Virus record (IMG/VR): IMGVR_UViG_3300028887_000066
Location: 115,550-179,549 of that record
Source: a virus
Taxonomy: Duplodnaviria > Heunggongvirae > Uroviricota > Caudoviricetes
Length of the DNA stretch: 64,000 nucleotides
Reading direction: 5' to 3' (one strand)
This document shows, in pieces, positions 39,501 through 62,852 of this stretch. Every line of letters starts with the position of its first letter. Positions within the stretch are counted from its first letter, which is position 1. Position numbers and translations under genes: made by a program. Below the pieces are notes generated by a model. It searched no databases and had not been told where the DNA came from. It was given only the letters and a program-made list of their open reading frames with translations.

Positions 39501-40119
39501 ACCTTCGACATATCCATATTATCTTTAATATAACAATAAATCTTGAACCGCCAAACTTTTTCCAATGAATTTTGCAAAAAATGAAGAGAAAATGCAAAAT
39601 TCTCATCTTTTATAATTGACTGATAATCAATAACTTATGAGGCACTTTTGCGGAGGAGGGATGCCTTCATGTTCTCATCTCTATTGTATTTAATATAATA
39701 AAATCCTTGGAACGGCCAAATAATATGGGAAGAAAATAATATAAAAATACTGACCCGAAGATTTGGTGGTTTCAAATAAAATGTTATATTAAATACAATA
39801 GAAACACCCGCGCAGACACATCCGTGGACAGACTCATGTCATCACGGAATGTACTGATTTACAGTAAGTTATAACTGCCGTCAAATTCCTCAGAAAATTG
39901 AGAAAAAAGTCAGAATTTCCTTGGTTTTCTCAGAAAGTTTATTATATTAAAATCAATTTACTTGCGGCGTATCCCGCAGGCAAGGAGGCATCATCCCTGT
40001 CGGGTTCACGTGTTGTTTCCGTTAAGGTTTTTTAGGAAAAGAAAAATGCGCATTTGTTTGGTCACGTCACAGAAAAGCCTTATCTTTGCAGTAGGAAAAA
40101 CAAAAGCAAGACAAGCATT

Positions 40120-40347
40120 ATGAAAATAGTATCAAGGTTCAAGGACGATTCCGATGGCAGATTGCTCGTCATTTACGAGACACCGAGCGGCAACTTGGTG
40201 GGAGAAGTGTATGCTGACGGAGTATATAAGAGGGGCAAGTGGAGTAGCCGCGCAACATTCCGTTGGCAGGATAAGGACGCATCAGAATATAGGGTGCGTG
40301 AGTATTTCGGTTTCCTAAAGGATAGCGTAACACAAATCAACAAATAG
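40120..40347 (+). CDS. Early hypothetical protein
   Basis: ATG 40120 after promoter. Confidence 0.7.
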   Translation: MKIVSRFKDDSDGRLLVIYETPSGNLVGEVYADGVYKRGKWSSRATFRWQDKDASEYRVREYFGFLKDSVTQINK

Positions 40348-40356
40348 GCAAATACT

Positions 40357-40557
40357 ATGAGGTACATCAATGGTGACAAGGTTAAGGTTGTCATTCCGCA
40401 GTTCAAGGATTTGTACGGAGGGCATAACGTATGGGTGATAGACCATATCAAGGTGCAGAGCAAGGGTTATCCGAGCCTATACATCTGCTACAACGATTCG
40501 GACAAGAACAAGATGCTGTTTCATTTCTTGGAAGAGGACGTTGAGAAAATAGAATAA
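40357..40557 (+). CDS. Early hypothetical (SH3/KOW-like)
   Basis: GDKVKV motif. Confidence 0.6.
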   Translation: MRYINGDKVKVVIPQFKDLYGGHNVWVIDHIKVQSKGYPSLYICYNDSDKNKMLFHFLEEDVEKIE

Positions 40558-40967
40558 ATCAGTCTTAAATCTGTGTTCATAATTGGCGGCACTGACCCGA
40601 TGGGTTGGTGCTGTTTTCTTTTTGTATTTCTGTCTGAACGGAGAATCGGCGGAGGACACGTCGTCCTGAGCTTTACAGTAAGAACGAATTGAATTTAATA
40701 TAATAAAAGATTCGGAGTGTGCAAATAAATCCCCTATTATTTTTCAATTATTTTTGTGATTTTTCTGCCGTAATTATTTGGAGGTTTGAAAATAATTGTT
40801 ATATTAAATACAATTTAGACACAGGCATGAAGGCGTGCTTCAGCCAGGTGATGTCGATGTTCGGGCTTGGTTTTCCGTTAACATTATTTAACTGAAAGTT
40901 TTCTGTGAAAAGCTTTGCAGTTTGGGAAAATTGTTGTATCTTTGCACTATAGAAAAGAAATAAGAGT

Positions 40968-41300
40968 ATGAGTAAGAAAAAGGTTAAGCGGTATGACATT
41001 AACAAGTCGGCAGCAGTAGGTAATGAAATCATCTGCCCCGTATGCGGAAGTCACTTTGTAAAGAAGACCTATCAGCAGGCATTTTGTTCAACAGAGTGCA
41101 AGGATCGGTATTGGAATCAGAAACGCAGAGGCAACGGATATTTTAGGAAGTACAACGCAGAGCATCCCGAAAGGTTAGAGCGTATAGGCATTGACTTGGA
41201 GACTTGTGGTTACGACCCCGATGGTTGTCTTGGAGATCCTGAATGGGAAAGTCTTGCACAGATAACTTTAGACCCCGATTGTGAAGAAATTGCTTGGTAA
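40968..41300 (+). CDS. Early zinc-finger protein
   Basis: CPVC...FCSTEC. Confidence 0.75.
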   Translation: MSKKKVKRYDINKSAAVGNEIICPVCGSHFVKKTYQQAFCSTECKDRYWNQKRRGNGYFRKYNAEHPERLERIGIDLETCGYDPDGCLGDPEWESLAQITLDPDCEEIAW

Positions 41301-41404
41301 TTTTTTCCTTAAATAAGGTTAAAAAGTTTGGTCAGTTCAAGAAAAAGTCTTATCTTTGCAGTAGAAATAAGAACAATAGCAAACAACTAAAAGAAACAAG
41401 AATT

Positions 41405-41581
41405 ATGAACAGAGAACAGATTTTAGATGCAGTAAAGACTTTGGCGATGTCGCAGGGTTTCTATGGCAGGCTTTACGAAAGGCTGACCGATGGCACTTGT
41501 GAGAGTGATAGTTTCCTCGACCTTATGGAAGAGCAGAATTTTGGTGACACCGTGGATATGGTGCTTTGGCTTGAAAGTTAA
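41405..41581 (+). CDS. Early hypothetical protein
   Basis: ATG 41405; LAMSQGFYGRL. Confidence 0.7.
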   Translation: MNREQILDAVKTLAMSQGFYGRLYERLTDGTCESDSFLDLMEEQNFGDTVDMVLWLES

Positions 41582-41607
41582 GAATCAAATTTCAAATAGC
41601 AGGTAAC

Positions 41608-41799
41608 ATGGAAAAACTGATACAAGAATTTGCCGATGCTTGCAGGGAGAAGGGTTTGGCAGACAACAAGAAGATAGAGAAGTATATCTTTGATGTCGTG
41701 TATGCTGACTATAAAGGAAAGGCAAGCAAGGCTCACATTAAGAACGTGTGCGATGATATTGCAGAGAGTGTATGCTTGAAGTTAGGCATTGCGTGCTGA
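41608..41799 (+). CDS. Early hypothetical protein
   Basis: ORF followed by terminator. Confidence 0.65.
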   Translation: MEKLIQEFADACREKGLADNKKIEKYIFDVVYADYKGKASKAHIKNVCDDIAESVCLKLGIAC

Positions 41800-42084
41800 A
41801 AAGAAAAATAGTTTTGTGCCATATTGATTATAGTTTTAGGTTTTTAGTTATTGGGGTGTTGGTTGCTCGTGATGAGTAGCCAACATTTTTTTATGGTCGG
41901 ATTATGCCTCGGATGTCTGAAGGCGTTGAGTCACAGTTAGTTACAATTGATTTTAATATAATAATAATCTTGGAATAGCCAAATATTTTGGCATAATTTT
42001 TTTCTTAAATAATGTTAAGAAATTTGTATAATTCAGATATTATTCGTACCTTTGCGGTAGAAATAAAAAAACAGAATAAGTAAT

Positions 42085-42414
42085 ATGAAAGAAAAGGAAT
42101 TTACAGACGAGTTCGAGTATTCAGAAAGCGTTGACTTAGGCAAAGGTAAGCATAGGCAGGTCATTATCTACAAAAACAAGGAGGTCGGGTATCTTGTGTC
42201 AAAAGAGAAAAATTTGCTTGCACCGATAGAAGAGAGTTACGTTATCCCCGATGTCGAGGTTGGTTTGTCAGAGCCTACGGAATCCATGCTTGAAGGGAAA
42301 AAGGGTTGGATAGACTTCAAGGTATTCGTTGATGATTATGATGCAGCCTTTGCGTATGTGAAGCAGAACTTTGAGCAGGTTGCATACCTATTTGAGGTTG
42401 GTGACTATGATTGA
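42085..42414 (+). CDS. Early hypothetical protein
   Basis: Promoter plus ORF. Confidence 0.7.
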   Translation: MKEKEFTDEFEYSESVDLGKGKHRQVIIYKNKEVGYLVSKEKNLLAPIEESYVIPDVEVGLSEPTESMLEGKKGWIDFKVFVDDYDAAFAYVKQNFEQVAYLFEVGDYD

Positions 42415-42543
42415 TTAGTATTTACAAGGAAAGTTAGAAAAACTAATTATTTTCATAACTTTTTTCTTAAATAGTGTTAAATAATTTGATAGTATCAATT
42501 ATTTTTCGTAACTTTGCAGAGTAATAATAAAACAAGTAGTATT

Positions 42544-42828
42544 ATGGCAAAGCAGATTACAATAGAGCAAGCACTGAATGGCAAAAGAGATTTCTATAGA
42601 AAAACTTTTCAGAGCAACGGATATTATCCGATAGACAAGTATGTGTATCACGCTGATACTGACGAGTTCGAGCAGTTCGTTCAAAAGACAAGTGGTTGGA
42701 AGTCGTGGGGGATTTCCAAAGCCGCAGGTATAAGCAATAAAGATTGGCTTAGGTACATCTTTGAGCATACAAGTATAATTCTTACATGGGAGGAAATGAC
42801 AGATAATTATAGTCACGACGCTAATTAA
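42544..42828 (+). CDS. Early hypothetical protein
   Basis: ATG 42544 after promoter. Confidence 0.7.
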   Translation: MAKQITIEQALNGKRDFYRKTFQSNGYYPIDKYVYHADTDEFEQFVQKTSGWKSWGISKAAGISNKDWLRYIFEHTSIILTWEEMTDNYSHDAN

Positions 42829-43294
42829 AAATAACTAAAGAGAATTGCTCTTGTCGGTAACGGTTGCTTGTGAAAGCAGCCGCTATTTTTTTTTATATGT
42901 ATGTTTTGTTTTTTTCGTGTGAACCGTGATGAACCTGATGTTCGAGTGGGCCCTGAGCTTGGACAGTGGTTTCATATTACTTTTAATATAACAAAGTTAT
43001 TGAAAGGAGCAAGATTTCTGCAAGGAAAATTTGTTAATATGTGTTAAATGGATTTTAACATTATTTTCTTTGGTTTTTGTTTGGAGGTATGCAGATTTTT
43101 ATTATATTAAATTCAATTCGACAAGCCACGTGGCGTGCAGGCATGAGGCATCTTCTGTCGATGATGGCTGTATTTCCGTTTAATGTTTTTTAACTGAAAA
43201 TAAATGCCGCAAAGTTTGCATATATGGAAAAAAAGTCTTACCTTTGCAAAGGAATTAGGAATAAATAGTATTAACAAATAAACACTTGAAAGTT

Positions 43295-43669
43295 ATGTTA
43301 GACATTGCACAGATTATCAAGAAGAACCGAGAGGAAGCCTATGAACTCATTAAGAGTGTCGGAGGACGTATTGATTTCGTGGAGGGCATTATCAAAGGCA
43401 GCACGGACGATTCCGAGGACGATTGGAACGGAGACCCCAACGATGTTAGTCTGCCTTGGGTCATACTTGCGTTTGACGAGGAATTGGTAGATACGGCTGT
43501 ATTGGCTGTAAAGTGTGGAGAGAACGAGGGTGACATTGTTTTCCTTGGCTATGATGTTGCCGAATGGACTTGTTCGGGTTGGAGCAGTTATGCAGAGTGT
43601 TGCAGCAACACCGACAACGACATCTATCTCTTCGTGGATGAATGGCTGAAAGACCATAACAAGAAATAA
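43295..43669 (+). CDS. Early acidic hypothetical protein
   Basis: ATG 43295 after promoter. Confidence 0.7.
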   Translation: MLDIAQIIKKNREEAYELIKSVGGRIDFVEGIIKGSTDDSEDDWNGDPNDVSLPWVILAFDEELVDTAVLAVKCGENEGDIVFLGYDVAEWTCSGWSSYAECCSNTDNDIYLFVDEWLKDHNKK

Positions 43670-43702
43670 ATCCGATAGAGCCGCCACGCATTAGACATTG
43701 GA

Positions 43703-43739
43703 CTTGCGCTTACCCGATGGGTGGGCGCATTTCTTTTTA
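43703..43739 (+). terminator. Member of a repeated terminator family TGCGCTTGCCCG-TGA-GGGTGGGCGCA-T tract
   Basis: Related copies near 48414, 50196, 57693 and 62632. Confidence 0.8.
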
Positions 43740-44870
43740 TGCTGTCTGACCAGCAAGAAAGGAACCCTTAATCCCGTCCAGACAGGAGGTTTCACATTGT
43801 ATTTAATATAATATTTTATCTTGATTCACCAAATTTTTTTGAAACTTTTTTCAAAATTTTCTTGGTGGATTGAAGGAATTTATTATATTAAAATCAATTT
43901 TTATTTCCCGTATCCCGCGCAGGAAGGAGGCTACTTCACATTCAACATTATTATAAGTAATTGATAATGAATGAGTTACTATACAGAAGCCGAGAGATGG
44001 AAGGAACATCATCTGTCATGATTGGCTTACGAGTCAATTGATGTCGCATTGCGTTGATATGTATCTGATGCTTGTGTTTCGCTTGCCGATGCTGATGGGG
44101 GAATGGAACTATTGGTTCTGAGACTATGGCACGATTGTCATATTCAGATAAGAGGGTTATTTTTTAACATAAAAAGATGCGGAAACATTTGGCGATTTCA
44201 ATGAAATTGTTATATTAAACTCAATTATTATTAACTGTGCGACGCTCGTGTCCCCGCGCTACTTCACATCCAAATGGTTGTAATTAACTGATTATGAGCA
44301 AGTTAGACTGATGACATGATGAGATGGAACACACTGACGCAGACGTGTCTTCGAGTATGCTGATGGTCAAATGGGTTGGAGTGAATGGAACACAGATGTT
44401 CGGTATGACATGTCGATGGACAGCCCCTTCCAGGAAAGATCCAATTGCTTTTAATATAATAATAATCTTGGATTGCGCAAGAAAATTGGCAATTATTTTT
44501 TTATTTATTTTTCTTGGGTAAATCTTTGGTGGATTCGGATATTTTGTTATATTAAAACCAATAGGAATAGCCTTCTGAGTTCAGGAAGACGGCGTAAAAT
44601 CAGGGTTGTAATTAGTTGATTTACAAATAGTTACAAAAACAGTGAAATTTCGGTTTTTTCTTCATTTTTTTGCAAATTTGTGGTGTTTTTATTTGGCGGT
44701 ACGGATTATTTTATTATATTAAATACAATGAGTATGCCTGCCTTCCAGAGCTACAGCATCCTGTATGACGGCAGTGAATTTTTTTCTGAAAAAGTTGCCT
44801 TAAAATTTGGTGGTTTCAATTTTTATTCGTACCTTTGCAAAGGAAATAAGACAAAAGAGCATTAAAGACA

Positions 44871-45116
44871 ATGGAAACAAAGACAAGACCAATCGGCAAC
44901 GAGTTCCCCGTGACAAGACATAACGGAACGGCGGGCGGCACGCTTGTAATCCTAAAGGTGGTCGAGAATAACGACCTTCTGTGTACGAAGTGTTATTTTC
45001 ACCACAACGGCTGCTTTAGGAGGAATAGGGAGTATTTAGGTGCGTGTGCAGGTTCGGCACGCACGGACGGGAAAGGAGTTGTATTTGAGTTCCAACGTGT
45101 GAAATCATATATGTAG
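44871..45116 (+). CDS. Early Cys-rich hypothetical protein
   Basis: CTKCYF...C...GAC..SARTDGKGVVF. Confidence 0.7.
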   Translation: METKTRPIGNEFPVTRHNGTAGGTLVILKVVENNDLLCTKCYFHHNGCFRRNREYLGACAGSARTDGKGVVFEFQRVKSYM

Positions 45117-45126
45117 AAAAAAAAGT

Positions 45127-45402
45127 ATGCTATACTACGACATCAGCTATCATTTGAATGGAATCCTCTATCTTAGGCTTACGGATCCGAATGACTGTGC
45201 AGGAAAAGATTTGAAGCCGAGTTCGGTATATACGGAGATAAGCTTGAAGGACTCTCAAAGACCCACCAATGAAGTTGTCCTGCTTATGGATAATGTTAGT
45301 GATGAGATAAGACGGGAAGCCGAGGGTTTCATGAGCGAGTTCAATGAAAGGCATCAGACAAGATACAATTACAAGATGCGTGCAGGGATGCGGTTCTCTT
45401 AA
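45127..45402 (+). CDS. Early hypothetical protein
   Basis: ORF in operon. Confidence 0.6.
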   Translation: MLYYDISYHLNGILYLRLTDPNDCAGKDLKPSSVYTEISLKDSQRPTNEVVLLMDNVSDEIRREAEGFMSEFNERHQTRYNYKMRAGMRFS

Positions 45403-45937
45403 ATGGGAGCCGCTTCTTTATATGTATAATGGTACTCAATCGAGTACCTTTTTTTGTATCATACATGGCGGAACAGCTCTGACGACTGTCCAACAGGTAA
45501 GTTATAATTGAATTTAATATAATAAATAATCCGAGACGGCCAAATGTTTTCCAATGTTTTTCGTGCAAGTACACGTTTTTTATTGATGTGGAGTTACACG
45601 TTTTTTCTGTTATGCCGAGAAAAATAATTGCTTTTTTCCTTGGTGATTCCAATCTTTTTATTATATTAAATACAATATAGTAAAACAGCGGGACGCGGGT
45701 AAAAAACAATGAAAAAATTGTATAATTATCTGTATTTCAAATGATTATAGTTATTTTGTGGGATTTATGTCCCCGTGATGGAGGGTTCTGTGTATATATG
45801 CTGAATTGTTAAGAAAGGTTAAAGTTCAAAATTAGCTGAAAATAATTGTCTAAAAATTTGCAGGGTTCGGGAAAAATGACTACCTTTGCAACGTGATAGT
45901 TAAACAACGAGTTATTAACGCTTAAAATTTAGATGTT

Positions 45938-46675
45938 ATGTTACGCAAAATGACAATCGCCCCCACAATCACAAGAAGAAGTGATGAATTAACTGCTTAT
46001 CTGAATGATATAGCAAGGTATCAGCCGCTGACTGCTGACGAGGAAATAGAGTTGGCAGAGGCAATGCGCAATGGTGATGCAGCCGCAAAAGACCGCTTTG
46101 TAAAGGCTAATCTGCGCTTTGTGGTTTCAGTTGCCAAGCAATATCAAGGAATGGGTTTAGACCTTTTAGACCTTATCAACGAGGGTAATTTCGGTTTGCT
46201 CAATGCCGTTGAGAAGTTCGATGAAACAAGAGGTTTCAAGTTTATTTCGTTTGCCGTGTTTGAGATTCGTGCCGCCATTACAGCCGCCCTTTGCGACAAG
46301 AGCCGTTTGGTTCGTGTTCCTGCAAAGAAAGTAGGGGAAGTGGAAAACGTATCGGTTTCTATGGACGCGCCTATCGGTGGCAATGACGATGAAAACAAGA
46401 CCTATCTTGACACTTTCGCAAGTGACAATCGCACGGATTCGGGTTTTGATTTGGAAGATGCAAAGGTGATTCTTAACAGACTGCTTTCAAAGTTAGATGA
46501 TACAACGGCAAAGGGGTATGACCCCAAGGACAGAAAAATTATCTGCGCTATCTTCGGTATCGGGTGCAGGGAGTATTCCGAGTATGAAGTTTCCCTTATG
46601 TTCAACATAACAAAGGAGCGTGTGAGACAAAAGAAGTTTGAGATTATAGAGAAGCTGCGCAAGTATGTGGCTTGA
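45938..46675 (+). CDS. Sigma-70-family (RpoD/RpoH-like) factor, divergent region 2.3/2.4
   Basis: Region 1.2 AYLNDI; region 2 ANLRFVVSVAKQYQ, DLINEGNFGL, KFDETRGFKFISFA; region 4.2 TKERVRQ. Confidence 0.9.
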   Translation: MLRKMTIAPTITRRSDELTAYLNDIARYQPLTADEEIELAEAMRNGDAAAKDRFVKANLRFVVSVAKQYQGMGLDLLDLINEGNFGLLNAVEKFDETRGFKFISFAVFEIRAAITAALCDKSRLVRVPAKKVGEVENVSVSMDAPIGGNDDENKTYLDTFASDNRTDSGFDLEDAKVILNRLLSKLDDTTAKGYDPKDRKIICAIFGIGCREYSEYEVSLMFNITKERVRQKKFEIIEKLRKYVA

Positions 46676-47102
46676 TTAAGAGCCGCTAACTAACATAACC
46701 AAGTCGGTTGCCCCGTATGGAGTGACCGACATTTTTTATATCTGTGACAATCCTGACGGAACAGCGGGGCCCCTGACTCAGGATGGGGTTTATAAATTGA
46801 GTTTAATATAATAATTATCTTGTATCTGCCAAAGGATTTGCAAATTTTATTTGTTAAAATATGTTAATAAAAAAGTTTAAAAAAAGATGATGAAATGTTT
46901 GGTGGAATGAAGTTTTTTATTATATTAAAAACAATGGAATTGCCCCTGTTTACGGGCTTCTCCTCGACATCCAGCCGTGATCCATTGTTAAGACTTTTTA
47001 ACTAAAAATAATTGTGGTTTTGTTTGGTCAATTCAAGAAAAAGCCTTACCTTTGCAAAGGAAATAAGAAACATCAGTATTAACACTTAAACAAGTATCAG
47101 TT

Positions 47103-47627: not shown

Positions 47628-48060
47628 GAGGTAACACTATCACATCAGAGAGTAACACAACATCAGACAAGTTCCCCACATCATTAACTTGGTGTGGGGT
47701 TCTTTCTTTTTATGTATCAACGAAGTTCAGAGGATACATCATCCTGCGGCGGGATACGGGAGGTTTTCTATTGTCTTTAATATAATGAAGTATTTGAATC
47801 TTGCAAGGATCTTGGCAATTATTTTTTATTTTTTTCTTTGTATTTTATTTGGTCATTCCGAATCTTTTGTTATATTAAATTCAATTTATAACTGCCGCCT
47901 TCCAGCTCGAAGAGTCGTCGTACCACGAGATATGGATGAAATGTTAAAAATTGTTTATACTTTAAAAATACATCATTTTTTGTTTGGCGGCTTGAAAATA
48001 AAGTCTTATCTTTGCGGCGTAGAAAGTTAAACAGATATTTAATAATAAAAGGCAGAACGT

Positions 48061-48378
48061 ATGAATAAGCAGGAAGTAATCACCGCATTAAGTGGTATGA
48101 AGTGCGAAATCGCAGAAGTCAGGGTTGACATCAGCTATGCAGGAAAAGTCAAGTTCCCAAACGAGAGCATCTTGGTTCGGTTGGTTGAAAATCCGAGCAA
48201 CGAAGATGAGATTGACAACGCAGAGCATTGGGATTTGTTCGACAATATCAAGGATTTTGAGAACGGCACGTACTACAAGCAGGGTGCTAACGAAACCTAC
48301 AGAACGCAGTACATCTCAAATTTCATCTCCGTCACCGAGTTCAAAGGCGACTATCAAAAGCTTCGGATAGCAGTATAA
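48061..48378 (+). CDS. Early hypothetical protein
   Basis: Promoter plus ORF. Confidence 0.7.
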   Translation: MNKQEVITALSGMKCEIAEVRVDISYAGKVKFPNESILVRLVENPSNEDEIDNAEHWDLFDNIKDFENGTYYKQGANETYRTQYISNFISVTEFKGDYQKLRIAV

Positions 48379-48870
48379 AAGAAAAAGTAACTTTTTATTA
48401 GCCGTGTTTAGAGTGCGCTTGCCCGTGAGGGTGGGCGCATCTTTTTTGTATATGCCCGCGTCAGACAAGAGACCACACTGAAGGCGGGAAGACGGCGGAT
48501 GATCCTATTGAATTTAATATAACATTTTTCCCGACCCGTGCAAGAAAATCAGCAACTTTTTTTGAAAAGTTTTCCATATTTTCCTTGGTGATTCCAATCT
48601 TTTTATTATATTAAAACCAATATATGAATTTTGCCTCCAGGAGGAGAAGAGAAATCGGTCATCACACAATATATTGATTTACAGATAGTTACAAAATATC
48701 TGGAAAAGATCTGGTAACATCCAGCAAACATGCAGATCACATGCAAATTTTCCAAATGTTAAATTTTGTGGATATGGTGAAAATAATTGCCTAAAAATTT
48801 GTCAGTATGAAAATAAAGCCGTACCTTTGCATCAGATTCAATAAGTTAAACAAATAAACAAACACCAGTT

Positions 48871-49089: not shown

Positions 49090-49514
49090 GGGATTCGTTT
49101 TTGGTTCATAGGTTAATAGTTTTAGGTTAGTTATTGTTCGGATAGGGTTGCTCGTGAGAGTAGCCCTATTTTCATATCAACACGTGGAGTTCCTCCTGAG
49201 CAGGATGAGAAAACGGGTAGTTTTTCATTGAATTTAATATAATAAAAATTTTGTAATAACCAAATGACTTTGTATGTAAATCAGCGGAAACGCCAAAATT
49301 TTTATGGATTCCGCAAGTTTACGCACATAATTTTTCTGAAAAATTTTTCAGAAAAAGCTTGGTGGATTCGGAGATTTTATTATATTAAAACCAATAGGAA
49401 TAAACTGTGCGTCGTCCAGGACTACAGGATGATGTTCCAGGATAATTTTATTGCAAAATAATCCCTAAAATCTTTGGTGGTGTCAGAAAAAAGCCTTATC
49501 TTTGCAATGTAAAA

Positions 49515-49793: not shown

Positions 49794-49804
49794 AATGTAC
49801 AGAT

Positions 49805-50161: not shown

Positions 50162-50422
50162 TTCTTGTTTCATATATATTATTTTATGTTCGGGTTGCGT
50201 CTGTCCGCAAGGATAGGCGCATCTTTCGTATATCTATGTACTCAATCGAGTACCTTTCAACAGTTCATCAGTGTCCACACGAGTCTGGACAGTTGGATAA
50301 TAATTGGTTTTAATATAGCAATAATCCTGAAACCACCAAATTTTATTCAATAAAAAACGAAAAATGTTTGGTCAGTCCGAAAAATAATCGTATCTTTGCA
50401 CCGAAAACAAACATAAGAAGAT

Positions 50423-51456: not shown

Positions 51457-51718
51457 CAACGCATAGAATCCAATTAGCATTTACACGGGGCGAATCCTTA
51501 AATGGGTTCGCCTCATTCTTTATATCTATGAATCGGATCCAGACCGACGGAACAGTCCCTGAGCTTGGATCTAGTCATAAAAATTGATTTTAATATAACA
51601 AATTATTTCACCCCACCAAATCCATTAACATTTTTTAAAGAAAAATTTTTCCCGTTTTGCTTTGCCATATCAGAAAAAAGCCTTACCTTTGCGGTAGAAA
51701 AATCAAAAACATAAAGTT

Positions 51719-52376: not shown

Positions 52377-52817
52377 TCCGCTCACATCCCCAATCCATAT
52401 CGCTATGGCAAGAGACCGCCCCTAAACAACAATTTTAGTTTTTAATTATTTTATTTTAAGCCGTAAGTAAACCCTTAAATAGAGAGTAGTATGATACGAG
52501 ACAAGCCCACCATTTGACAATATACACATACTAATTATTTATAAAACAAGCGCATAGGAGATCGTCCCATAAGCATCCGCAACGTATCGGGTGGAACAAA
52601 GGTCGGTCTCCTGCTTTTTTTATGTAATTTTTTTGCTGAATCCCTTGGCGGATTCAATTTTTTTATTATATTAAACACAATAGAACGAATGGTATCCCGT
52701 ACAGTGTCCCGCGTGCATCAGGTCATCCCGTGTTTTTTTGAAAAATATTCCCGTTTTCATTTGGCCAATCCAAAAAATAATCCTATCTTTGCAATACAAA
52801 CAAACAGTATGTGAGTT

Positions 52818-53459: not shown

Positions 53460-53545
53460 AAATAAGAAAGTGTCAATGCCGATTCTTATGTATGGTACTC
53501 AACTGAGTACCGAAATTCAGACAAATACAATAAACCATAACAGCA

Positions 53546-53785: not shown

Positions 53786-54033
53786 GCTCGTTTTTCGTTC
53801 ATAACTTTTTGTTTGTTTGTCGGAGACAGGTAATTTTAACATTACTTGCCTCCATTTTTTATGCCTATACATTTGGTCATGTCAGAAATTCTGTTATATT
53901 AAACACAATATATAACATCCGCCTTCAGTGGGTTCCGTCGTCATCACGGCTTTTAACATTTATTAAGGAAAAGTTTTCTTCGTTTTATTTGGTGGTTTGG
54001 AAATAAAGCCTTATCTTTGCGACAGAATTAAAA

Positions 54034-54384: not shown

Positions 54385-54397
54385 AAAAACTGTTATT

Positions 54398-54610: not shown

Positions 54611-54675
54611 AACTTTTGGTCGTTCCATATAAAAGTCTTATCTTTGCATCAGAAAAAACAAACAAATATACAGTT

Positions 54676-54948: not shown

Positions 54949-54953
54949 AAACT

Positions 54954-55178
54954 ATGGTTACGAAAGAGCAGCTAAAGGCCATTACGTTGGAGATTATGCC
55001 CACAATGAAGCGCAGGGGCAAGGCAAACCCGCGCAAATATGAGAGGCAGCTTTTATACGGCGATGTGCTTGATTGGATTCGGGATAATCACCCCGAACTG
55101 CGAAACAATGACTATGACGATGATTTTGCGGCGCATTACATTATTGGTGCATACGTCATACAAAACGCGATTCTTTAA
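54954..55178 (+). CDS. Early hypothetical protein
   Basis: ATG 54954. Confidence 0.65.
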   Translation: MVTKEQLKAITLEIMPTMKRRGKANPRKYERQLLYGDVLDWIRDNHPELRNNDYDDDFAAHYIIGAYVIQNAIL

Positions 55179-55309
55179 CATCTTTTAACAGTTCAGATTT
55201 GGCCAATCCAAATAAAAGCCTTATCTTTGCAACGTAAATCTGAAGGACACGGAAATACCCCCGTCCATAATGGTGTGGGCGGGGAACTATCAAACAAACA
55301 AGAAAGACT

Positions 55310-55696
55310 ATGGAACTTAGCAGGGAAATTAAAATCACCCCAATTAAGGTGAACGGTAGCAGGACAGAGCTGAATGTCATTGAAATTGAGGTCAGCCACG
55401 ATAAGGGCGGCTACAATATGTTCACGGGCGAATCACGCAGAACAGGTATCATTTGTAGTATCAGACCTATGGGCCGTCATGATGGATGTTGCTCCACTAT
55501 TATTGACGGTAAGACCGAACACATGGGATTCTATACTTTCCTCGTACCTTGCGGAAGAAAATCACCGAAGAAGTTGGAAATGGTGGCTAACGAGATTCTT
55601 CCACTTTCCGAGAAAATAGCTGAAATGTTCCTTGAAGGGCAGTATCAGGCCATTGCTAACATGATGACATCGGCAGTACGGGCAATTAACCTATAG
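55310..55696 (+). CDS. Early hypothetical protein
   Basis: KGGYNMFTGE..R.G motif; hairpin in 5' leader. Confidence 0.7.
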   Translation: MELSREIKITPIKVNGSRTELNVIEIEVSHDKGGYNMFTGESRRTGIICSIRPMGRHDGCCSTIIDGKTEHMGFYTFLVPCGRKSPKKLEMVANEILPLSEKIAEMFLEGQYQAIANMMTSAVRAINL

Positions 55697-55703
55697 GAGT
55701 GCT

Positions 55704-55877
55704 ATGGATAACGTAATAGGGAAAAGAGTACGCATCAATCATCTTTATGATGAAAGCAATTGGTATGACGGTAAGGAAGGTGTTGTGGAGTACATTGACG
55801 ATATAGGCCAATGGCACGGAACTTGGGGCGGTATAGCTATCATTCCCGACACTGACGATTACGATATTTTGGATTAA
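55704..55877 (+). CDS. DUF4314-like small protein
   Basis: Manual translation GKRVRI...GKEGVVEYIDDIGQWHGTWGGIAIIP. Confidence 0.7.
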   Translation: MDNVIGKRVRINHLYDESNWYDGKEGVVEYIDDIGQWHGTWGGIAIIPDTDDYDILD

Positions 55878-55956
55878 CGATTCTTGTTTCATGGTGTTTG
55901 TTTGTCGGTGGCATCTATTTAGGTAGGTGCTGCCATTTTTTAATTATTTAGGATAT

Positions 55957-56892
55957 ATGCCAAAAAAGCTTACGTTAAATGAATTTATAGAACGCTCCCG
56001 TAAGATCCACGGTGACAGATACGATTATTCCCATATCAAGGAATATAAGAACAATCAGACAAAAGTACCTATCATTTGTCCTGAACACGGCGAATTTCTC
56101 CAAACCCCGAAAAATCATCTTAATGGTAGGGGTTGTCCAAAATGCGGAGGTACGGAAAAAATGACGACACAGGAGTTCATTGAGAAGGCTAAACATATAC
56201 ACGGGAGCCGCTATGATTACAGCCTTGTGGAATATGATACGACAAAGGACAAGGTAAAAATCATCTGTAATGATTGCGGCAGGATATTCCTGCAAAGGCC
56301 GCAAGACCATCTACGGGCGTATGGTTGCCCTTATTGTTGGGGGAAAAACAAGACTACGGAAGAGTTCATTGAAGAGGCGAGAAAAGTCCACGGTGATAAA
56401 TATGACTATTCCGAAGTGACATACTTTAGGGCAATTGACAAAATTAAGATAAAATGCAGGAAATGCGGACACGTTTTCTTGGTTACACCTCACGACCATA
56501 TCACACATAAGAATGGTTGCCCGTATTGCAACAGTTCAAAATTGGAAAAGAAAACGGCGAAGCTCTTGGATGATAGTGGAATCACATATACCCGTCAGCA
56601 GACGTTCCCTTGGTTGAAACTGAATAAATATACGCCAATGACGTTGGATTTCTTTATTCCTGAGTTGAATGTCGCTATCGAATGTCAGGGAGGACAGCAT
56701 TTCAAGCCTGTTGATTGTTTCGGAGGAGATGAGAACTACAATTCAATCCGAGAAAGAGACTTGCTAAAATATAACTTATGTGTCGCTCACGGGATAAAGG
56801 TAATATATTATACAGACGTGAATTTACCGAAATATCCGTATAAAGTGGTGAAAGACAAAAGCCTACTTATTCAATTATTGCTTGCAGCCTGA
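55957..56892 (+). CDS. Putative homing endonuclease (DUF723-like Zn repeats plus Vsr/DUF559-like nuclease)
   Basis: Three HGDxYDYS...C..C repeats; LDFFIP...IECQGGQH...D. Confidence 0.8.
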   Translation: MPKKLTLNEFIERSRKIHGDRYDYSHIKEYKNNQTKVPIICPEHGEFLQTPKNHLNGRGCPKCGGTEKMTTQEFIEKAKHIHGSRYDYSLVEYDTTKDKVKIICNDCGRIFLQRPQDHLRAYGCPYCWGKNKTTEEFIEEARKVHGDKYDYSEVTYFRAIDKIKIKCRKCGHVFLVTPHDHITHKNGCPYCNSSKLEKKTAKLLDDSGITYTRQQTFPWLKLNKYTPMTLDFFIPELNVAIECQGGQHFKPVDCFGGDENYNSIRERDLLKYNLCVAHGIKVIYYTDVNLPKYPYKVVKDKSLLIQLLLAA

Positions 56893-57099
56893 ATTTCGGG
56901 CTGCATTTTTTTATCCTGACCATGCTGAAGAGATGAGGAGGATCCACAATACTATTGGTTTTTAATATAACATTTTTCTTGAAATGGCCAAATCCCATTA
57001 ACATTATTTAAGGATTATTTTTGACCATTTATTTGGCTAATTGGGGAAAAAGCCTTATCTTTGCATCAGTTTTAAGAACAAACATTAAAATTACCGATT

Positions 57100-57423
57100 A
57101 TGAAACAGTATGTAGTAACAGTCAGGCGACACGAAGAGGATGAACTGAGCGATTACGTCCGTCCTATCCCCTGCAAAGATTTTGAGACGGCGGTCAAAGT
57201 CAAGGAAACGGTCAAGGAACGCTACTTGAAAGAGAACCCCACAATCAAGGACGGTGATGACAGCAGACACATTGCCGAGGACAGCGATACGCGCTTTACC
57301 TGCAACGATGACTATTGTGCAGATGATATTGATGTCTATATTCACGAACTTACTCTTATTGAGAGCGATGCAGACATTGAAGAGATTATGAACATCTTGG
57401 ATGAAGAGGGGGCATTTTGCTAA
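57100..57423 (+). CDS. Early acidic hypothetical protein
   Basis: Resembles 58253-58504 (PCKD.ETA). Confidence 0.7.
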   Translation: MKQYVVTVRRHEEDELSDYVRPIPCKDFETAVKVKETVKERYLKENPTIKDGDDSRHIAEDSDTRFTCNDDYCADDIDVYIHELTLIESDADIEEIMNILDEEGAFC

Positions 57424-57441
57424 CTGAAAAATAAGATAACG

Positions 57442-57663
57442 ATGAAGGAAATTACAATAAACGACCTTTGGAAAGCTTGTGTGGAGGAACGCAAGAAAGG
57501 AAACGGAAAAAAGAAAATCCTCGTTCCGTCCGATGAAGAAGGGAACAGCTACAATGCAATGTACTACCTTTTCTCGCCGACTGACGAATATGATCCAGAG
57601 TGGTCTAATTTCCCCCGTGACGTAACAGAGGAAAACAAAAAGGACTATATCATACTTGGTTGA
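57442..57663 (+). CDS. Early hypothetical protein
   Basis: SDEEGNSY motif. Confidence 0.7.
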   Translation: MKEITINDLWKACVEERKKGNGKKKILVPSDEEGNSYNAMYYLFSPTDEYDPEWSNFPRDVTEENKKDYIILG

Positions 57664-58252
57664 ATTTTTATTAACTTTATTTCATTTAATGATGCGCTTG
57701 CCTGTGAGGGTGGGCGCATTTTTTTCTATATACCCTGAACCCTGACGGCGGAGGACACGTCGTCCTGAGCTTGGACAGTATGTATATATTGTATTTAATA
57801 TAACAAAGTTTCTGACGTGACCAAATGCTTTAACACTTTTTAAGGAAAATCCTGCTTTTGAGAGGATGAAGAAATAACGGCTAATTTCAATAAGAGCCGT
57901 AGATTTTTCAATAGTGGCTGCTGCCTTGTCGAGCGGGAGTCATTATTGTTTCATGTATTTTATCCTGGACGACAGATCCGTCTTCATGGAAGGCGTGCAG
58001 GTTTCTATTGTATTTTAATATAACAATTATTTTCAGACTGCCAAACAAAAAAGTGATTATTTTCTTGGCGGATTCAAAAATTTTATTATATTAAATACAA
58101 TATATGAAACGGATCCAAGCTCAGGGCCCACGAGCTTATCAGGATCCGAACCCGTTAACAGTTTTTAAGGAAAATAGTTTCCGATATGTTTGGCCACATC
58201 AGAAAATAATCCTATCTTTGCAAAGTATTAAACAAATAAACAAACAGGCATT

Positions 58253-58504
58253 ATGGTTGTATTTTTAGTTCAGCAGGAAAGCAACGTGGACGGTGATGTC
58301 GTGTTCGACGTTACACCGTGCAAGGACAGGGAAACGGCTGAAAAGCTGTTCAATGAGAAAATCAAGTCCATCCGTTCCGAGGGTCATTTTGACCACGACG
58401 ACGAAGATTTCACCGTATCAGAGGCAGAAGGTCATTACTTCATTACGGATGAATGTGATGACTACTACGAGGACATAACCATTGAAAAAGCAAAAGTATT
58501 ATGA
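58253..58504 (+). CDS. Early acidic hypothetical protein
   Basis: Promoter plus ORF. Confidence 0.7.
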   Translation: MVVFLVQQESNVDGDVVFDVTPCKDRETAEKLFNEKIKSIRSEGHFDHDDEDFTVSEAEGHYFITDECDDYYEDITIEKAKVL

Positions 58505-58899
58505 GACTACATCAGAAATTCAAAAATGTTCATTCCTACGCTTGCGGGATTGAAAAATGGGTAAAGGACTTCTATAAAGAAGTTTCTGGACGCACATTAA
58601 CTATGACTTTCCCTATGGATTTTGCCATTGCGGATTGGTATGACAAGGCATCTGTCATCGACACATACAAGCGTGTAAAAGCCGCATATCTTAATGACTA
58701 TAAGGCATTTACCGAGGTTGTCGTGTCACTTATATACTTAGCCTATGCGAATGACCAACTGCGAAAGCAGGGTGTGGAAGACAGGGAAAGATTCATTGAA
58801 CTGTATGAGAAGCTTTTTTATGAGGCAAAGGAACTCTTCTATGAGCATTATAAGGATAACGAAGAAGCTCAGGATTATTTCTTTGAGTGGACTGACTAA
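58501..58899 (+). CDS. Early hypothetical protein
   Basis: TFPMDFAIAD...DTYKR motif. Confidence 0.75.
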   Translation: MRLHQKFKNVHSYACGIEKWVKDFYKEVSGRTLTMTFPMDFAIADWYDKASVIDTYKRVKAAYLNDYKAFTEVVVSLIYLAYANDQLRKQGVEDRERFIELYEKLFYEAKELFYEHYKDNEEAQDYFFEWTD

Positions 58900-58952
58900 A
58901 TAAAAACAACAGGTACTCAACTGAGTACCAAAAAATAGCATACATTAAAATT

Positions 58953-59234
58953 ATGGCAAAGGAAATTGAAATTCTGTGCTTCACGGAAACCGAGGACAAT
59001 ATAAAGGACTGTATTCTCGCAGTAGAAGACAAGAGCAAATTCAATACCGAGGAATTGACCGCCGCCATCAGGGAAGAGGTCGGATCCATCGTAAATATCG
59101 AGGAAGAGGATTGGGATGATGAATACTCCCCGTCAAAAGAGGAATGGGAAGAGGTTATCAATAAACTTTCTTGTGGGCTTCCTGCCGATTGGCTCGACTA
59201 TGAGTTCTACTATGAGACGATACAGCTCCATTAA
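58953..59234 (+). CDS. Early acidic hypothetical protein
   Basis: ORF with A-rich start. Confidence 0.7.
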   Translation: MAKEIEILCFTETEDNIKDCILAVEDKSKFNTEELTAAIREEVGSIVNIEEEDWDDEYSPSKEEWEEVINKLSCGLPADWLDYEFYYETIQLH

Positions 59235-59506
59235 AAGGAGTTAAGAAACTTACTATCTATCACTATGGGTGGGTATCTTTAACAGATATTCACCCTTGTT
59301 TTATTTGGCCAATTCAATTTTTTTATTATATTAAAACCAATAGAATCCATCCGCCTTCGCCTGCGGGGTTCAGGAGTACCACATCCAAAAGTCTTTAACA
59401 TTACTTAACTAAAAATAATTGTGGTTTCGTTTGGCCAAATGGGAAAAAGGTCTTATCTTTGCAGCGTAAAAAAACAAGTAATAACAAATAAACATCAATC
59501 AATCGT

Positions 59507-60382
59507 ATGGAAAAAATGACTTATAAGGAGTATCAGAAAGCTTTGAAAGAGGTTGGTGTATCTTACCTTGGCTCTTTCAATCAGTCTGCCAAAATGGTGC
59601 TGAACGGCAAAAACGGTGTGATTACCTATTCTCTCTATCTTGCGCCTTGGAAGCTTGCAAGCGGAAACGGACTTACTATCAATACCTGTCCGAGCGGTTC
59701 ACATTGTCAAGAGTTTTGCCTTAACGGAAGCGGACACAATAAGGCTGACATTCTTGTACATGGGATTAAGGAATCTCGAATCAATCAGGCCCGTATCAAG
59801 AAAACGCGCCTGTTCTATCAGAATAAGGCTCTCTTTATGCGTATGCTTGTGTTTGAGTTGGAGGCCGCTATGCGCTACGCAGAAAAGCGTGACATGGGAT
59901 TTTCCGTCCGTCTTAACTGCACATCTGACTTGTCGCCCCTTGCCTTTAGAGTTGAAGGGAAAAATATCTTGGACATGTACCCCGACGTGATTTTCTATGA
60001 CTATACAAAGGTTCCTGGACGCTATGCTATCTGTGAGAAATACCCGAACTATCACCTTACATTCAGCTATGACGGCTACAACTGGGACACTTGTGTTGAG
60101 TTCCTTAACCGTGGGATTAACATTGCCGTGGTGTTTGAAAGTGATGTTATGCCGATTTCTTGGCGTGGCTACCGTTGCATTGATATGACAAAATCCGATT
60201 TGCGCTACATGGATGCAAAAAGTAATGACGGTGTGGGATTCTGTGGTTTCCTGCATTTCCACCGCCCTGCAAGCCTTTATAAATCAGGCAAATATGAACG
60301 CCCAAACACTCCGTTTGTCGTAATGGAGGACGATGCAGAGGTCGTATATGCCTTTAGACTTGGAAAATCTACCGAGGAATAA
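59507..60382 (+). CDS. GP88-like phage protein
   Basis: LYLAP, CP...C...CL..SG, VRLNCTSD, FYDYTK, YHLTFS, SDLRY.D. Confidence 0.75.
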   Translation: MEKMTYKEYQKALKEVGVSYLGSFNQSAKMVLNGKNGVITYSLYLAPWKLASGNGLTINTCPSGSHCQEFCLNGSGHNKADILVHGIKESRINQARIKKTRLFYQNKALFMRMLVFELEAAMRYAEKRDMGFSVRLNCTSDLSPLAFRVEGKNILDMYPDVIFYDYTKVPGRYAICEKYPNYHLTFSYDGYNWDTCVEFLNRGINIAVVFESDVMPISWRGYRCIDMTKSDLRYMDAKSNDGVGFCGFLHFHRPASLYKSGKYERPNTPFVVMEDDAEVVYAFRLGKSTEE

Positions 60383-60489
60383 ATGGTAAAATTTGTTAAA
60401 AGATACGGAATTATTTGGCCAGTCCATTATTTTTCCGTATCTTTGCATCAGAAAAACAATAGAACAATAATAAATTAAATTTAACGATT

Positions 60490-61521
60490 ATGTGTTTATA
60501 CATTGGAAAAAAGCTACCATTGGTCGCAAAAAAGGACATTGTTGTCTATAAGTATCTTGACGAATCTGACGGTAATTACAAGACACCGTATCAGGACACG
60601 CCTGTGACATTGAATGAAACATTGGTTGCGAACCGTGTCAATTATCTGTGTAAAGAATTATACAACGGCAAACACTCTATCAGTGAAGGAGCTATTCATG
60701 CCTGTCTTTCTACCAAAAGGGAAAAAATGGGTGATGTGGCATTAAAAGCCATTATCAAAAAAGGCACTACCTTCTATGTGCAGGATGATTTTGCTGAAAT
60801 TGCGGCTACTGAACTGTTTATTACAGACGAGGAAATAAATTGCGATATAGACAGTCCAGACCTTATTGATGTAGCGAAACTCTACATTGAAGCCGCTCGT
60901 AAAGAAAAGGAAAACTCAAATGATAATGGCGTTTTCGTCGGTGATTTTTGTCTTTCTGACAAAACTTATGTAAGTCCCTTGTCCGACTTCAATAAAGAGG
61001 ACGCTATTGGTATTGTTGCATTTTTCGACAATGAGGGTAATCCTGTTGTCATATCCTTGGAAGAAGCGTTTTTGCCTTGGCTTACGGAATACTCAATGAA
61101 AAACGAAGTATGCTCCAACATTAAAGATAATATAGCCGATGACCTTAATGGTAAGAAGCACACTTATGACATTGCGGCATCAAAAGACTATGACCCCGAT
61201 AAATTCAAGGCTGTTGCTTATTGCACTAACTACCAAACTAAGGGAACGGAAAAGGGCGATTGGTATCTTGGGTCTATCGGGGAGTGCATAAAGGTGGCAG
61301 AAAATCTGGGAATCATCAATGCAAGCATTCTCTTCAAAGGTATTGGAGATATTATCGGTTTCTCTTGGATGTGGAGTTCATCTGAAAGAACGTGGGGTGG
61401 CTACTCTTCGGCTTGGTACTGTGGCTTGAGCAATGGCAATTGCAGCTACTGTTGCGATAGCAGGCTCGACGAAGACTGTGTGCGTCCGCTCTCTGCTTTC
61501 ATTAACGGAGCGAAAGCGTAG
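60490..61521 (+). CDS. Protein with C-terminal C-type-lectin-fold (DUF1566-like) domain; likely DGR target
   Basis: WYLGSIGE...WSSSE...AW...G...VRPLSAF. Confidence 0.75.
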   Translation: MCLYIGKKLPLVAKKDIVVYKYLDESDGNYKTPYQDTPVTLNETLVANRVNYLCKELYNGKHSISEGAIHACLSTKREKMGDVALKAIIKKGTTFYVQDDFAEIAATELFITDEEINCDIDSPDLIDVAKLYIEAARKEKENSNDNGVFVGDFCLSDKTYVSPLSDFNKEDAIGIVAFFDNEGNPVVISLEEAFLPWLTEYSMKNEVCSNIKDNIADDLNGKKHTYDIAASKDYDPDKFKAVAYCTNYQTKGTEKGDWYLGSIGECIKVAENLGIINASILFKGIGDIIGFSWMWSSSERTWGGYSSAWYCGLSNGNCSYCCDSRLDEDCVRPLSAFINGAKA

Positions 61522-61976
61522 CTTGATTTGGCGGATACGCCACTATTTGCGAAGCATATTTATTTAATTTATTGTAGGTCTATTGTTGCCCGTTCTGCTT
61601 TTCGGAGTGGAACGGGTTTTTCATGTATTCATTTCTGAAGCCCGTCATTTCCAGTGCTGGATGTTTGCTGTTGATCAAAAATTGAGTTTAATATAATAAA
61701 AGTCTTGAAATGGCCAAACGAAAATGAGCAAATTTTTCTCTTTTTTTCTTTCTTTATATATTTCTTTCTTTAATTCTCTTTATATATCTAATCTATATAA
61801 TAAAAACAACTATCTGTTTAATTATAAGATATTATACATGCATGTTAGCATGAGATCTAAGGGGGGGGGTTGAAAAATATTACAAAAAAAGAAGAAAAAA
61901 AAAAAAGTGGTTTTATTTGGCCAATTCAAAATAAAGCCGTATCTTTGCAGTGTGAAACGATAAAACAATAAAAGTT

Positions 61977-62585
61977 ATGACTTACGAAGAAGCAATTAAG
62001 AAGAATCGCCCTGTGAATCCGAAAAAGGCTGCTTTCTATGACAGTCTTATGGAGTTTTACAAGAGCGTTATGAGTGAGACTGAAAAGCAGGAGGAAATTG
62101 AGGGTTCTATTGAATCTTTCCTCTGTGGCGGAAAACGTCTGCCGCTCTATGACATCAGCAATGTCAAGGTTCTCAACAAGGAAATAGTGGAAAAGTACAA
62201 GCCGACCCACCGCAGAAAAATCAGACTCTATGCCGCCCTTGTAGCCTATATGGAGGCAAAGTTCGGGGAATACATTGAGACCGAGTATGAATCAGATTTC
62301 AACTCTGACTTCGACTTCAACGAGGATATAGTTGCCGTTGTACCTTCTTTTGTCGGTGTGGCCATCATCAGTCCGAAAACCTTAAAAGAGTATAAGGAGA
62401 AGAAGAAGGAAACCGAGAAGAACATGAAGCACTATTCAATCAACGTGCATCTTGACGTGGTTGTTCCTGTGGAGGTGGATGCCGTAGATGAAGCCACCGC
62501 TATCCAAATCGCAAAGGATATTGCAGATATGCAGAACTATGACGATGTGTTCGTCCGTGATGCGTGTGTCACAGATGTGAGATAA
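61977..62585 (+). CDS. Early hypothetical with C-terminal DpnD/PcfM-like segment
   Basis: YSINV...VEVDAVDEATAIQIA. Confidence 0.65.
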   Translation: MTYEEAIKKNRPVNPKKAAFYDSLMEFYKSVMSETEKQEEIEGSIESFLCGGKRLPLYDISNVKVLNKEIVEKYKPTHRRKIRLYAALVAYMEAKFGEYIETEYESDFNSDFDFNEDIVAVVPSFVGVAIISPKTLKEYKEKKKETEKNMKHYSINVHLDVVVPVEVDAVDEATAIQIAKDIADMQNYDDVFVRDACVTDVR

Positions 62586-62852
62586 TTCATAATAATATTA
62601 TATAGTTTTTAAGAAGTTAAACAATGGGAGTTGCGTCCGTCCGTGAGGATAGGCGCAATTTTTTTTTATGTTTTCGTTTGGCCATTCCAACTTTTTTATT
62701 ATATTAAAACCAATAATAGAAAACGATCGACGGCGTACTCCTGCGTGCATTTCTCTTTAACACTTTTTAAGGAAAAAACCCCTCATTTTGTTTGGCCACC
62801 CCAAATAAAAGCCTTATCTTTGCATCGGTTTTAAGAAACAAACAAGGAAGTT

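Follow-up and report, generated by a model that had tools for sequence, protein, structure and literature searches.

Gene-less promoter-like units in both orientations across the early block of a rumen jumbo phage

Phage sigma factors such as SPO1 gp28 and T4 gp55 each have a promoter class of their own, and lambda oop and P22 sar are antisense RNAs made from orphan promoters, each of them single, terminated and conserved in sequence. Phage phiEco32 displaces the host sigma and installs its own, gp36 with gp79 (PMC12276001). The early promoters of T4 carry UP, −35, TGn and −10 elements all together and are more uniform than host promoters (PMC2988021), while the PeSLs of T4-type phages are conserved intergenic composites of ~100 bp that flank orphan genes in hyperplastic regions, where recombination takes place at them (PMC2839356, PMC4122927). 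Here we describe a gene-less promoter-like unit, which we call class A, in a 64,000-nucleotide (nt) stretch of phage DNA (the window; bases 115,550-179,549 of IMG/VR record IMGVR_UViG_3300028887_000066), where it occurs alongside a class of host-type, gene-proximal promoters (class B).

Class A resembles each of these systems in part. As in phiEco32, SPO1 and T4, the likeness is to a phage sigma that redirects the host core to a small set of near-identical promoters, but in those systems the promoters head genes, whereas here all 42 copies are gene-less, half of them point backward and all are confined to the early block of the candidate sigma itself. With the T4 early promoters class A has in common dozens of very uniform promoters, an A/T-rich upstream element and a place in the small-early-gene region of a T4-like myovirus; T4 early promoters, however, fit the host consensus and precede genes, whereas class A does not match the host −7 box and has a second promoter between itself and the gene. 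The likeness to PeSLs lies in the terminator together with class B, as at a crossover in strain L016 described below, and not demonstrably in class A: PeSLs stand directly before an open reading frame (ORF) and are co-oriented with it, a placement that class B plus terminator shares, whereas class A forms an extra layer in both orientations, its rightward copies lying a median of 178 nt from the ORF with class B in between. Like oop and sar, class A includes promoters that face the 3′ end of a neighbouring gene, but there are 21 such antisense candidates here, without terminators and with neutrally drifting sequence. It is plausible that class A is a phage-sigma promoter class of a known sort, unusual in being gene-less, bidirectional and dense.

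The source record is 356,121 bp long and rated complete. It encodes ClpB-like ATPases and a T4-type prohead protease, the latter in the window, which also holds a 16-gene tRNA array and a tmRNA. Near-identical DNA was present in 20 rows from 16 studies, and 13 runs, nearly all labelled as bovine gut or bovine metagenomes, contained at least half of the sampled words. The gene-proximal promoters have the Bacteroidota form, with TTTG at −33 and TAnnTTTG at −7. From the tRNA and tmRNA genes, the prohead protease, the bovine runs and the form of the promoters we conclude that the phage is a jumbo myovirus whose host belongs to the rumen Bacteroidota. No DNA match to it was found in the phage collection, and IMG/VR protein searches for relatives, with a GP88-like protein and a 482-aa virion-region protein as queries, returned nothing useful. 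From 34.6 kb to ~78 kb in window coordinates every gene runs rightward, in ~20 short operons whose proteins are mostly orphans.

The class A core, TATATTAAANNCAAT, occurs exactly 33 times in the window and 37 times with at most one mismatch, where 0.8 occurrences are expected by chance with one mismatch allowed. A weight matrix built on 80 nt and scanned over the whole genome returned 42 sites, 21 per strand, all of them intergenic and all inside one 37-kb block (genome 155,081-191,870, or 39,532-76,321 in window coordinates). Inside the window there are 18 plus and 18 minus copies with 11 divergent pairs 65-141 bp apart, and six further copies, including two further pairs, lie to its right. 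An earlier note on this DNA, made from the letters alone, had counted 36 copies, 18 per strand and 11 divergent pairs by hand, which the scan matches exactly, and its statements that the array is intergenic and restricted to the early region hold genome-wide. Each unit consists, in order, of an A/T-rich upstream tract (A-rich at −55 to −40), TTTGG at −33, a spacer of constant length (18 nt) in which ..aTTCAa...ttTTAT is common, the box TATATTAAA and a CA ~6 nt further on. Essentially all 42 copies show TTTGG-18 nt-TATATT, a spacing within the 16-19 nt of bipartite sigma-70-type promoters, and the CA, invariant 5-6 nt after TATATT, would be the pyrimidine-purine start of such promoters; a relaxed two-part pattern gave 50 matches in the genome, 44 of them inside the block. 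The 19 nt from TTTG to TATATT likewise fall within the 19-21 nt of host sigma-A promoters. The downstream box departs from the host TAnnTTTG, as every class A copy reads TATATTAA where 43 gene-proximal class B promoters of the same genome read TAtCTTTG; the two classes have the same TTTGGnnnaTTCAA upstream half and differ in the downstream box alone, as the note had observed of the TTTGG box and its spacing. GC content is ~0-25% over the core and the first 10 nt, ~60% at +25 to +45 and lower again by +65, in agreement with the A/T-rich stretch and GC-rich block that the note had placed after each motif: ~10 A/T-rich bases follow the core, and then a block of ~60% GC, ~40 nt long, which we term the cassette.

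The intergenic gaps follow one plan, in which a stop codon is succeeded by a strong hairpin with a T-run (the terminator), a GC block, a leftward class A copy, an A/T-rich spacer, a rightward class A copy, another GC block, a TTAA-N6-TTAA-like box, a class B promoter and, after 30-45 nt, the ATG; some gaps hold a leftward copy alone, or a rightward one alone. This layout bears out two further claims of the note, that the GC block of minus copies backs onto a terminator and that plus copies lead to a TTAA-N6-TTAA-type box, which is found and is followed by the TAnnTTTG promoter. For 16 of the 21 minus copies a strong hairpin and T-run lie 22-72 nt (median 58) from the start, and among the other five a simple scan gives hairpin/T-run sites at two (50196 and 51487). 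Every leftward class A copy has a rightward promoter, class A or class B, at its back. For rightward copies the median distance is 136 nt to the class B −7 box downstream and 178 nt to the ORF start, and the median motif-to-ORF distance for class A overall is 276 nt. Between 39000 and 58999, no terminator-like site was present between any rightward copy and its operon, and no minus-strand terminator within ~250 nt behind the leftward copies; the strong terminators in this interval are the plus-strand operon ends. The terminator 50-200 nt after the promoter that marks small RNA genes of the oop/sar type is thus missing here. Because no intrinsic terminator stands behind any copy in this interval, the RNAs, if class A units are promoters, would not be 60-90-nt species.

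Four upstream motif classes (A to D) are present in the genome. Class B has the consensus TTTGGcca.ttcaa...TAtCTTTGCA, has a median distance of 39 nt to the ORF behind it and, though most frequent in the block, also turns up at scattered places outside it; in one example (47983-48016, +), TTTGG at −33 and TATCTTTG at −7 stand 46 nt before the ATG at 48061. Class C is a T-rich stretch followed by GTATATTTG, a host-like −7 box without a −33, and also has a median distance of 39 nt to ORFs. Class D, AGTATTTATA, lies a median of 31 nt before ORFs, and six of its eight gene-proximal copies are at genome 69-151 kb, adjoining the left end of the window with the prohead protease gene. The phage has three sigma-70-family genes; multisubunit RNA polymerase domains were not found in the genome, and a T7-type polymerase family search gave no match, its control being uninformative. 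The host sigma and the three phage sigmas make up four candidate holoenzymes. One sigma gene lies within the class A block (45938-46675, +; 245 aa, with regions 1.2, 2 and 4 and no region 3). Class B promoters precede both this block sigma gene and that of a second sigma (genome 336,935-337,795), which makes both of them early. The third sigma belongs to an operon led by class C. The sigma genes together with classes C and D point to a putative cascade from the host sigma to the early sigmas and on to the third sigma, with loci, for example, at window 26823 and genome 336,935-337,795 and 350,449-351,165.

In sigma factors the −35 element is recognised by region 4.2 and the −10 element by regions 2.3/2.4. 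The block sigma is ~41% identical to Bacteroidales RpoD, and in the alignment its region 4.2 recognition helix is host-like (TKERVRQ versus host TRERVRQ), whereas region 2.3/2.4, which melts and reads the −10, is altered (FAVFEIRAAI versus host YAVWWIRQSI) and region 3 is absent. With a host-like region 4.2 and an altered region 2.3/2.4, the block sigma therefore fits class A, which combines the host −33 with a new −10 box. The second sigma is the reverse, its region 2.3/2.4 being host-like (HAVWYIRRS) and its region 4.2 changed, and it therefore fits class C, with the host −7 and no −33. Among the sigma homologues, the second aromatic position of region 2.3 is E or D where class A is present, and Y plus Q are found where class A is absent. 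This residue logic, together with co-occurrence in a few related lineages, is suggestive of the block sigma as the reader of class A.

Three fragments of strains 93-98% identical to this phage (L106, L107 and L016) keep every copy, 21 of 21 in L106, all at orthologous places, and five of five in L016. Between strains 95% identical, the core has diverged by 2.2% and the cassette by 5.3%; the figures for third codon positions and for all non-coding DNA are 6.3% and 5.4%. More distant relatives were found via homologues of the block sigma. In L190, with a sigma ~87-89% identical and DNA ~77% identical where alignable, 25 class A copies with at most one mismatch lie in 11.3 kb, most of them position-matched to reference copies; identity is 91% in the core, 83% in TTTGG, 61% in the spacer and 66% in the cassette, against baselines of 64% (third codon positions) and 52% (cassettes that are not orthologous), and nearly all core differences fall at the two free positions. 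L195 (sigma 61% identical) has eight perfect copies in back-to-back pairs, and in L198 (58%) a pair, GC block, box and class B succeed one another as in the reference, with a variant core, TATATTATAAnCATA. In L193, L196 and L197 (46-53%) class B promoters are present, some with palindromic operators, and class A was not found. The motif is specific to phages: no bacterial genome stretch has more than one exact core copy among the matches listed (120 stretches), and in IMG/VR several core copies occur only in a strain fragment of this phage. By these alignments, the class A core is under strong purifying selection across the phage lineage, and this selection, together with the anatomy of the units, strongly supports their description in the earlier note as orphan and promoter-like.

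The same note had likened the conserved leader and variable cassette to a dispersed guide array producing 60-90-nt RNAs or, alternatively, to DNA decoy sites, and had proposed aligning orthologous loci across strains for cassettes that vary while leaders stay fixed. That alignment gave orthologous cassettes that drift by point mutation at the rate of silent sites; units exchanged or acquired between strains around fixed repeats, as in a guide array, were not seen. A single cassette is an instance of patch conversion: the L106 version of 51597− contains a patch identical to the cassette of 42990−, from which we conclude that class A copies exchange sequence. Gene exchange mediated by class A was not seen. 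In strain L016 the gene at 72387-72680, to the right of the window, has been lost by a crossover joining two class B promoter repeats, and 800 bp carrying a GIY-YIG-like frame have been inserted directly after another class B promoter (~70082-70137); in genome coordinates these differences lie at 187,929-188,623 and 185,631-185,686.

The cassettes gave no sign of a message of their own. The statement of the note that no copy is followed by a start codon and ORF stands in substance: 16 of 42 copies lack an ATG within their first 45 nt, and the others open short frames (median ~17 aa) with non-coding codon usage. The idea of leaderless small ORFs beginning at the start site was considered and rejected, such frames being inconsistent and non-coding in codon usage, and the two frames checked, at 46921+ and 44715+, are lost in L190. 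Folding of all 42 cassettes gave small hairpins throughout and no common structure (mean z-score −0.75, the reverse strand being equally stable), and a shared fold, as in a structured RNA family, was not found. Rfam at the gathering threshold identified only tRNAs and the tmRNA in the whole window, and at E up to 1 just two chance-level matches in 39.1-49.5 kb. Compared with the phage genome, the cassettes have above-chance matches, and complementarity, only to other cassettes, apart from the box after 62700+, which matches other boxes; the cassette-cassette matches hold a constant orientation relative to the core, with words shared in both strand orientations, and promoter and cassette therefore form one oriented repeat family. 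Six-base palindromes are not enriched in the cassettes (23 observed, 31.8 expected). A 'polylinker/decoy' idea was rejected on this count, the excess of GGATCC/GGGCCC coming from related cassette copies, and a Rho-loading idea because the excess of C over G (520:428) is too weak. A scan of ~35 window and genome proteins against Pfam, NCBIfam or PHROGs gave no effector-like gene, and most block proteins were without any family. Across strains and relatives the GC-rich cassette keeps only its length and its GC richness, with no spacer-like turnover.

On this evidence we judge the chance to be somewhat better than even that class A units are two-part sigma-70-type promoters specific to the phage lineage, read by the host core with a phage early sigma and giving read-through transcripts. 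The most likely reader would be host core RNA polymerase carrying the block sigma, whose own gene has a host-type promoter within the block. Rightward copies would act as upstream tandem promoters, whose RNA would cross the ~45-nt GC-rich leader and class B to enter the operon, and could keep the early operons on when the host sigma is displaced. Leftward copies would fire antisense, through the terminator of the previous operon and into that operon, so that the phage sigma, once present, would re-transcribe the early block from both sides. The leftward effect could be antisense RNA or collision (early shut-off, masking), blocking of read-through, or negative supercoiling supplied to the partner promoter, and we do not choose among these. 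The GC block is most simply read as a spacer or initial transcribed region, constrained in composition and length and not information-bearing, and would be run-up or insulating DNA that separates the A/T-rich promoter from the terminator T-run or from the next A/T-rich box without introducing stray signals. A more specific version is tentative and, in our estimate, doubtful: the sigma regulon would consist of ~42 gene-less promoters bracketing almost every early operon, and the sigma would trigger an overwrite of both strands (masking or shut-off, collision, or supercoiling), with insulating cassettes.

Several points weigh against the proposal of a dedicated phage sigma. The class A transcript starts are predicted, and the sigma assignment comes from residue logic and from co-occurrence in a few related, non-independent lineages. 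A gene-less regulon is unusual for a sigma, the median class A-ORF distance of 276 nt comparing with 31-39 nt for the other three classes; no compelling reason is given for inward-facing copies that flank nearly every operon, and the model leaves the GC richness of the cassette unexplained. TATATT, moreover, agrees with positions one to six of the host −7 box, so that the host sigma may use class A to some extent.

An explanation that we consider unlikely is that class A units are extra-strong immediate-early promoters for host sigma-A polymerase, unmodified or modified by a virion enzyme, with the leftward copies as by-products or as competitors that soak up host polymerase. Class A does have the −33 box, the spacing (19 nt from TTTG) and the A/T-rich tract of the host-type promoters, TATATT conforms to the TAnnTT part of the host −7 box, and in T4, too, the early promoters vary less than host promoters do (PMC2988021). 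The neighbouring class B promoters, however, fit the host consensus perfectly at a normal ORF distance, no bacterial stretch among the matches listed has more than one core copy, and the variant core in L198 co-varies with divergence of the sigma. Furthermore, TTAA replaces the TTTG half of the Bacteroidota −7 box, its best-conserved part, in every class A copy.

We also think it quite improbable that the core is the site of a non-sigma phage protein (a regulator, an architectural protein or a recombination protein), or that the units are homology patches for PeSL-like shuffling of cassettes, even though the 15-nt core varies less than most sites read by a sigma. It is asymmetric and keeps one spacing and orientation to TTTGG, as expected where a sigma reads DNA, and pair spacings of 65-141 bp imply no fixed protein bridge. 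Shuffling draws on the plasticity of the block, as evidenced by the gene loss through a class B crossover and the GIY-YIG-like gain in L016, on the one cassette patch-converted from another copy, and on the precedent of PeSLs as conserved ~100-bp promoter/terminator composites in hyperplastic regions (PMC2839356, PMC4122927); the crossover that was seen nevertheless used class B and not class A, and inverted copies would invert genes rather than shuffle them. A dispersed guide or small-RNA array, with 60-90-nt RNAs whose cassettes target host or phage nucleic acid, or a set of DNA decoys, would account for a fixed leader before differing blocks and for oriented words common to the cassettes of both strands, promoter and cassette being one oriented unit. 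We hold it to be highly improbable. Between 39000 and 58999 no terminator closes a unit or defines a 3′ end; the cassettes are orthologous in strains and relatives and drift as silent sites do, without turnover; they have a mean folding z-score of −0.75 with an equally folding reverse strand, belong to no Rfam family and match above chance only one another (plus the box after 62700+); and the scanned proteins include no recognised effector-like gene. For decoys in particular, the palindromes fall short of enrichment and the cassette sequence is not conserved.

How Bacteroidota phages, and huge gut phages above all, programme their transcription has hardly been mapped, and this genome offers a clean and testable case, combining four motif classes, three sigma genes and sigma residue changes that mirror the changed promoter half. 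If a dedicated sigma does read class A, it would represent an unusual use of a sigma, for non-coding and bidirectional transcription over the early genes of the phage itself. In practice, orthogonal expression parts for Bacteroidales might be made from the two promoter classes and the sigma. For annotation, the locus is a caution that a repeated 'leader plus variable block' pattern is not necessarily a guide array.

The RNA material consisted of assembled contigs from four libraries, and contigs show neither transcript starts nor strand. Among the 32 of 165 pieces listed, those from three rumen/sheep metatranscriptomes fall inside operons, two studies have contigs that start at 48037/48038, ~17 nt past the expected class B start, and no cassette is covered, which speaks neither for nor against class A transcription. 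A wastewater library gives thin coverage of every bin, and DNA may be present in it. In the bin 41401-42067 the summed contig depth reaches ~3600 and ~530 in two bovine rumen metatranscriptomes, with neighbouring bins near 0-5; a brief fortuitous match to an RNA of high abundance could explain this, as could strong expression of an element close to the 41960− cassette.

The 36 units of the window are given here from TTTGG to the cassette end, with strand and start of the core. The leftmost is 39468-39555 (−, core 39532), slightly degenerate and running into a C-rich repeat region; 39633-39720 (−, core 39697) stands back-to-back with 39762-39849 (+, core 39785), and 39920-40007 (+, core 39943) lies 138 nt upstream of the host-type −7 box of gene 40121. 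The start of 40638-40725 (−, core 40702) is 67 nt from the terminator at 40585-40625, and it is followed by 40777-40864 (+, core 40800) and by 41896-41983 (−, core 41960), which has only a host-type promoter at its back. The copy at 42926-43013 (−, core 42990) has one mismatch here and is perfect in strain L106; then come 43080-43167 (+, core 43103), 43746-43833 (−, core 43810) and, at the start of a 1-kb gene-free gap, 43861-43948 (+, core 43884). Within and after the gap are 44188-44275 (+, core 44211), convergent with 44394-44481 (−, core 44458), then 44525-44612 (+, core 44548) and 44692-44779 (+, core 44715). The gap itself (43670-44679) has no credible gene and five class A copies, and its convergent pair 44211+/44458− would give complementary RNAs. 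Near the block sigma gene lie 45457-45544 (−, core 45521) and 45639-45726 (+, core 45662), the latter upstream of the host-type promoter of that gene, and beyond it 46746-46833 (−, core 46810), 46898-46985 (+, core 46921), 47720-47807 (−, core 47784), 47848-47935 (+, core 47871), 48457-48544 (−, core 48521), 48584-48671 (+, core 48607), 49177-49264 (−, core 49241) and 49358-49445 (+, core 49381). The copy at 50253-50340 (−, core 50317) again has only a host-type promoter at its back, and 51533-51620 (−, core 51597) is the one whose L106 cassette is partly the version at 42990−. Further right are 52644-52731 (+, core 52667), 53872-53959 (+, core 53895), the degenerate 56905-56992 (−, core 56969), 57738-57825 (−, core 57802), with 27 cassette bases identical to those of 40702−, and 57958-58045 (−, core 58022), degenerate through a 1-nt insertion. 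The last are 58064-58151 (+, core 58087), 59304-59391 (+, core 59327), 61631-61718 (−, core 61695) and 62677-62764 (+, core 62700).

Other conserved elements were seen around the array. A TGATTTACAnnTAGTTA-like element is present at 39613-39637, 39855, 43962, 44289, 44617 and 48675, 68-78 nt past the core of class A copies without a directly following box and class B (12 matches, 3.5 expected), and is present in L190 as well. Behind the copy at 39532, the minus strand of 39254-39520 carries ~250 nt of C-rich imperfect repeats on the word ACCCCTC, which open an 87-codon frame with non-coding codon usage; in the distant relative L193 a similar C-rich stretch follows a TATATTAAAcacTAT site (10772+) directly past the sigma gene. 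In L196, a palindromic operator (AATTGGGTTAA ... TTAACCCAATT) surrounds the −33 box of host-type early promoters at 422-470, 741-790 and 8028-8077, which suggests a different, repressor-based control of the early block in relatives without class A. Freshwater and marine phage contigs (L097, L094 and others) whose sigma is ~40% identical carry small early genes in arrays, with one highly uniform promoter (GATTAGG...TTATATTTAAG or TGCTTATCTTTA) ~25-45 nt before each ATG; with uniform promoters directly before ORFs this is an ordinary arrangement, and these homologues were set aside as a guide to class A. Finally, an 18-bp palindrome, GGTACTC-N4-GAGTACC, occurs at window 45431-45448, 50240-50257, 53500-53517 and 58912-58929, where it forms a small second hairpin near operon ends.

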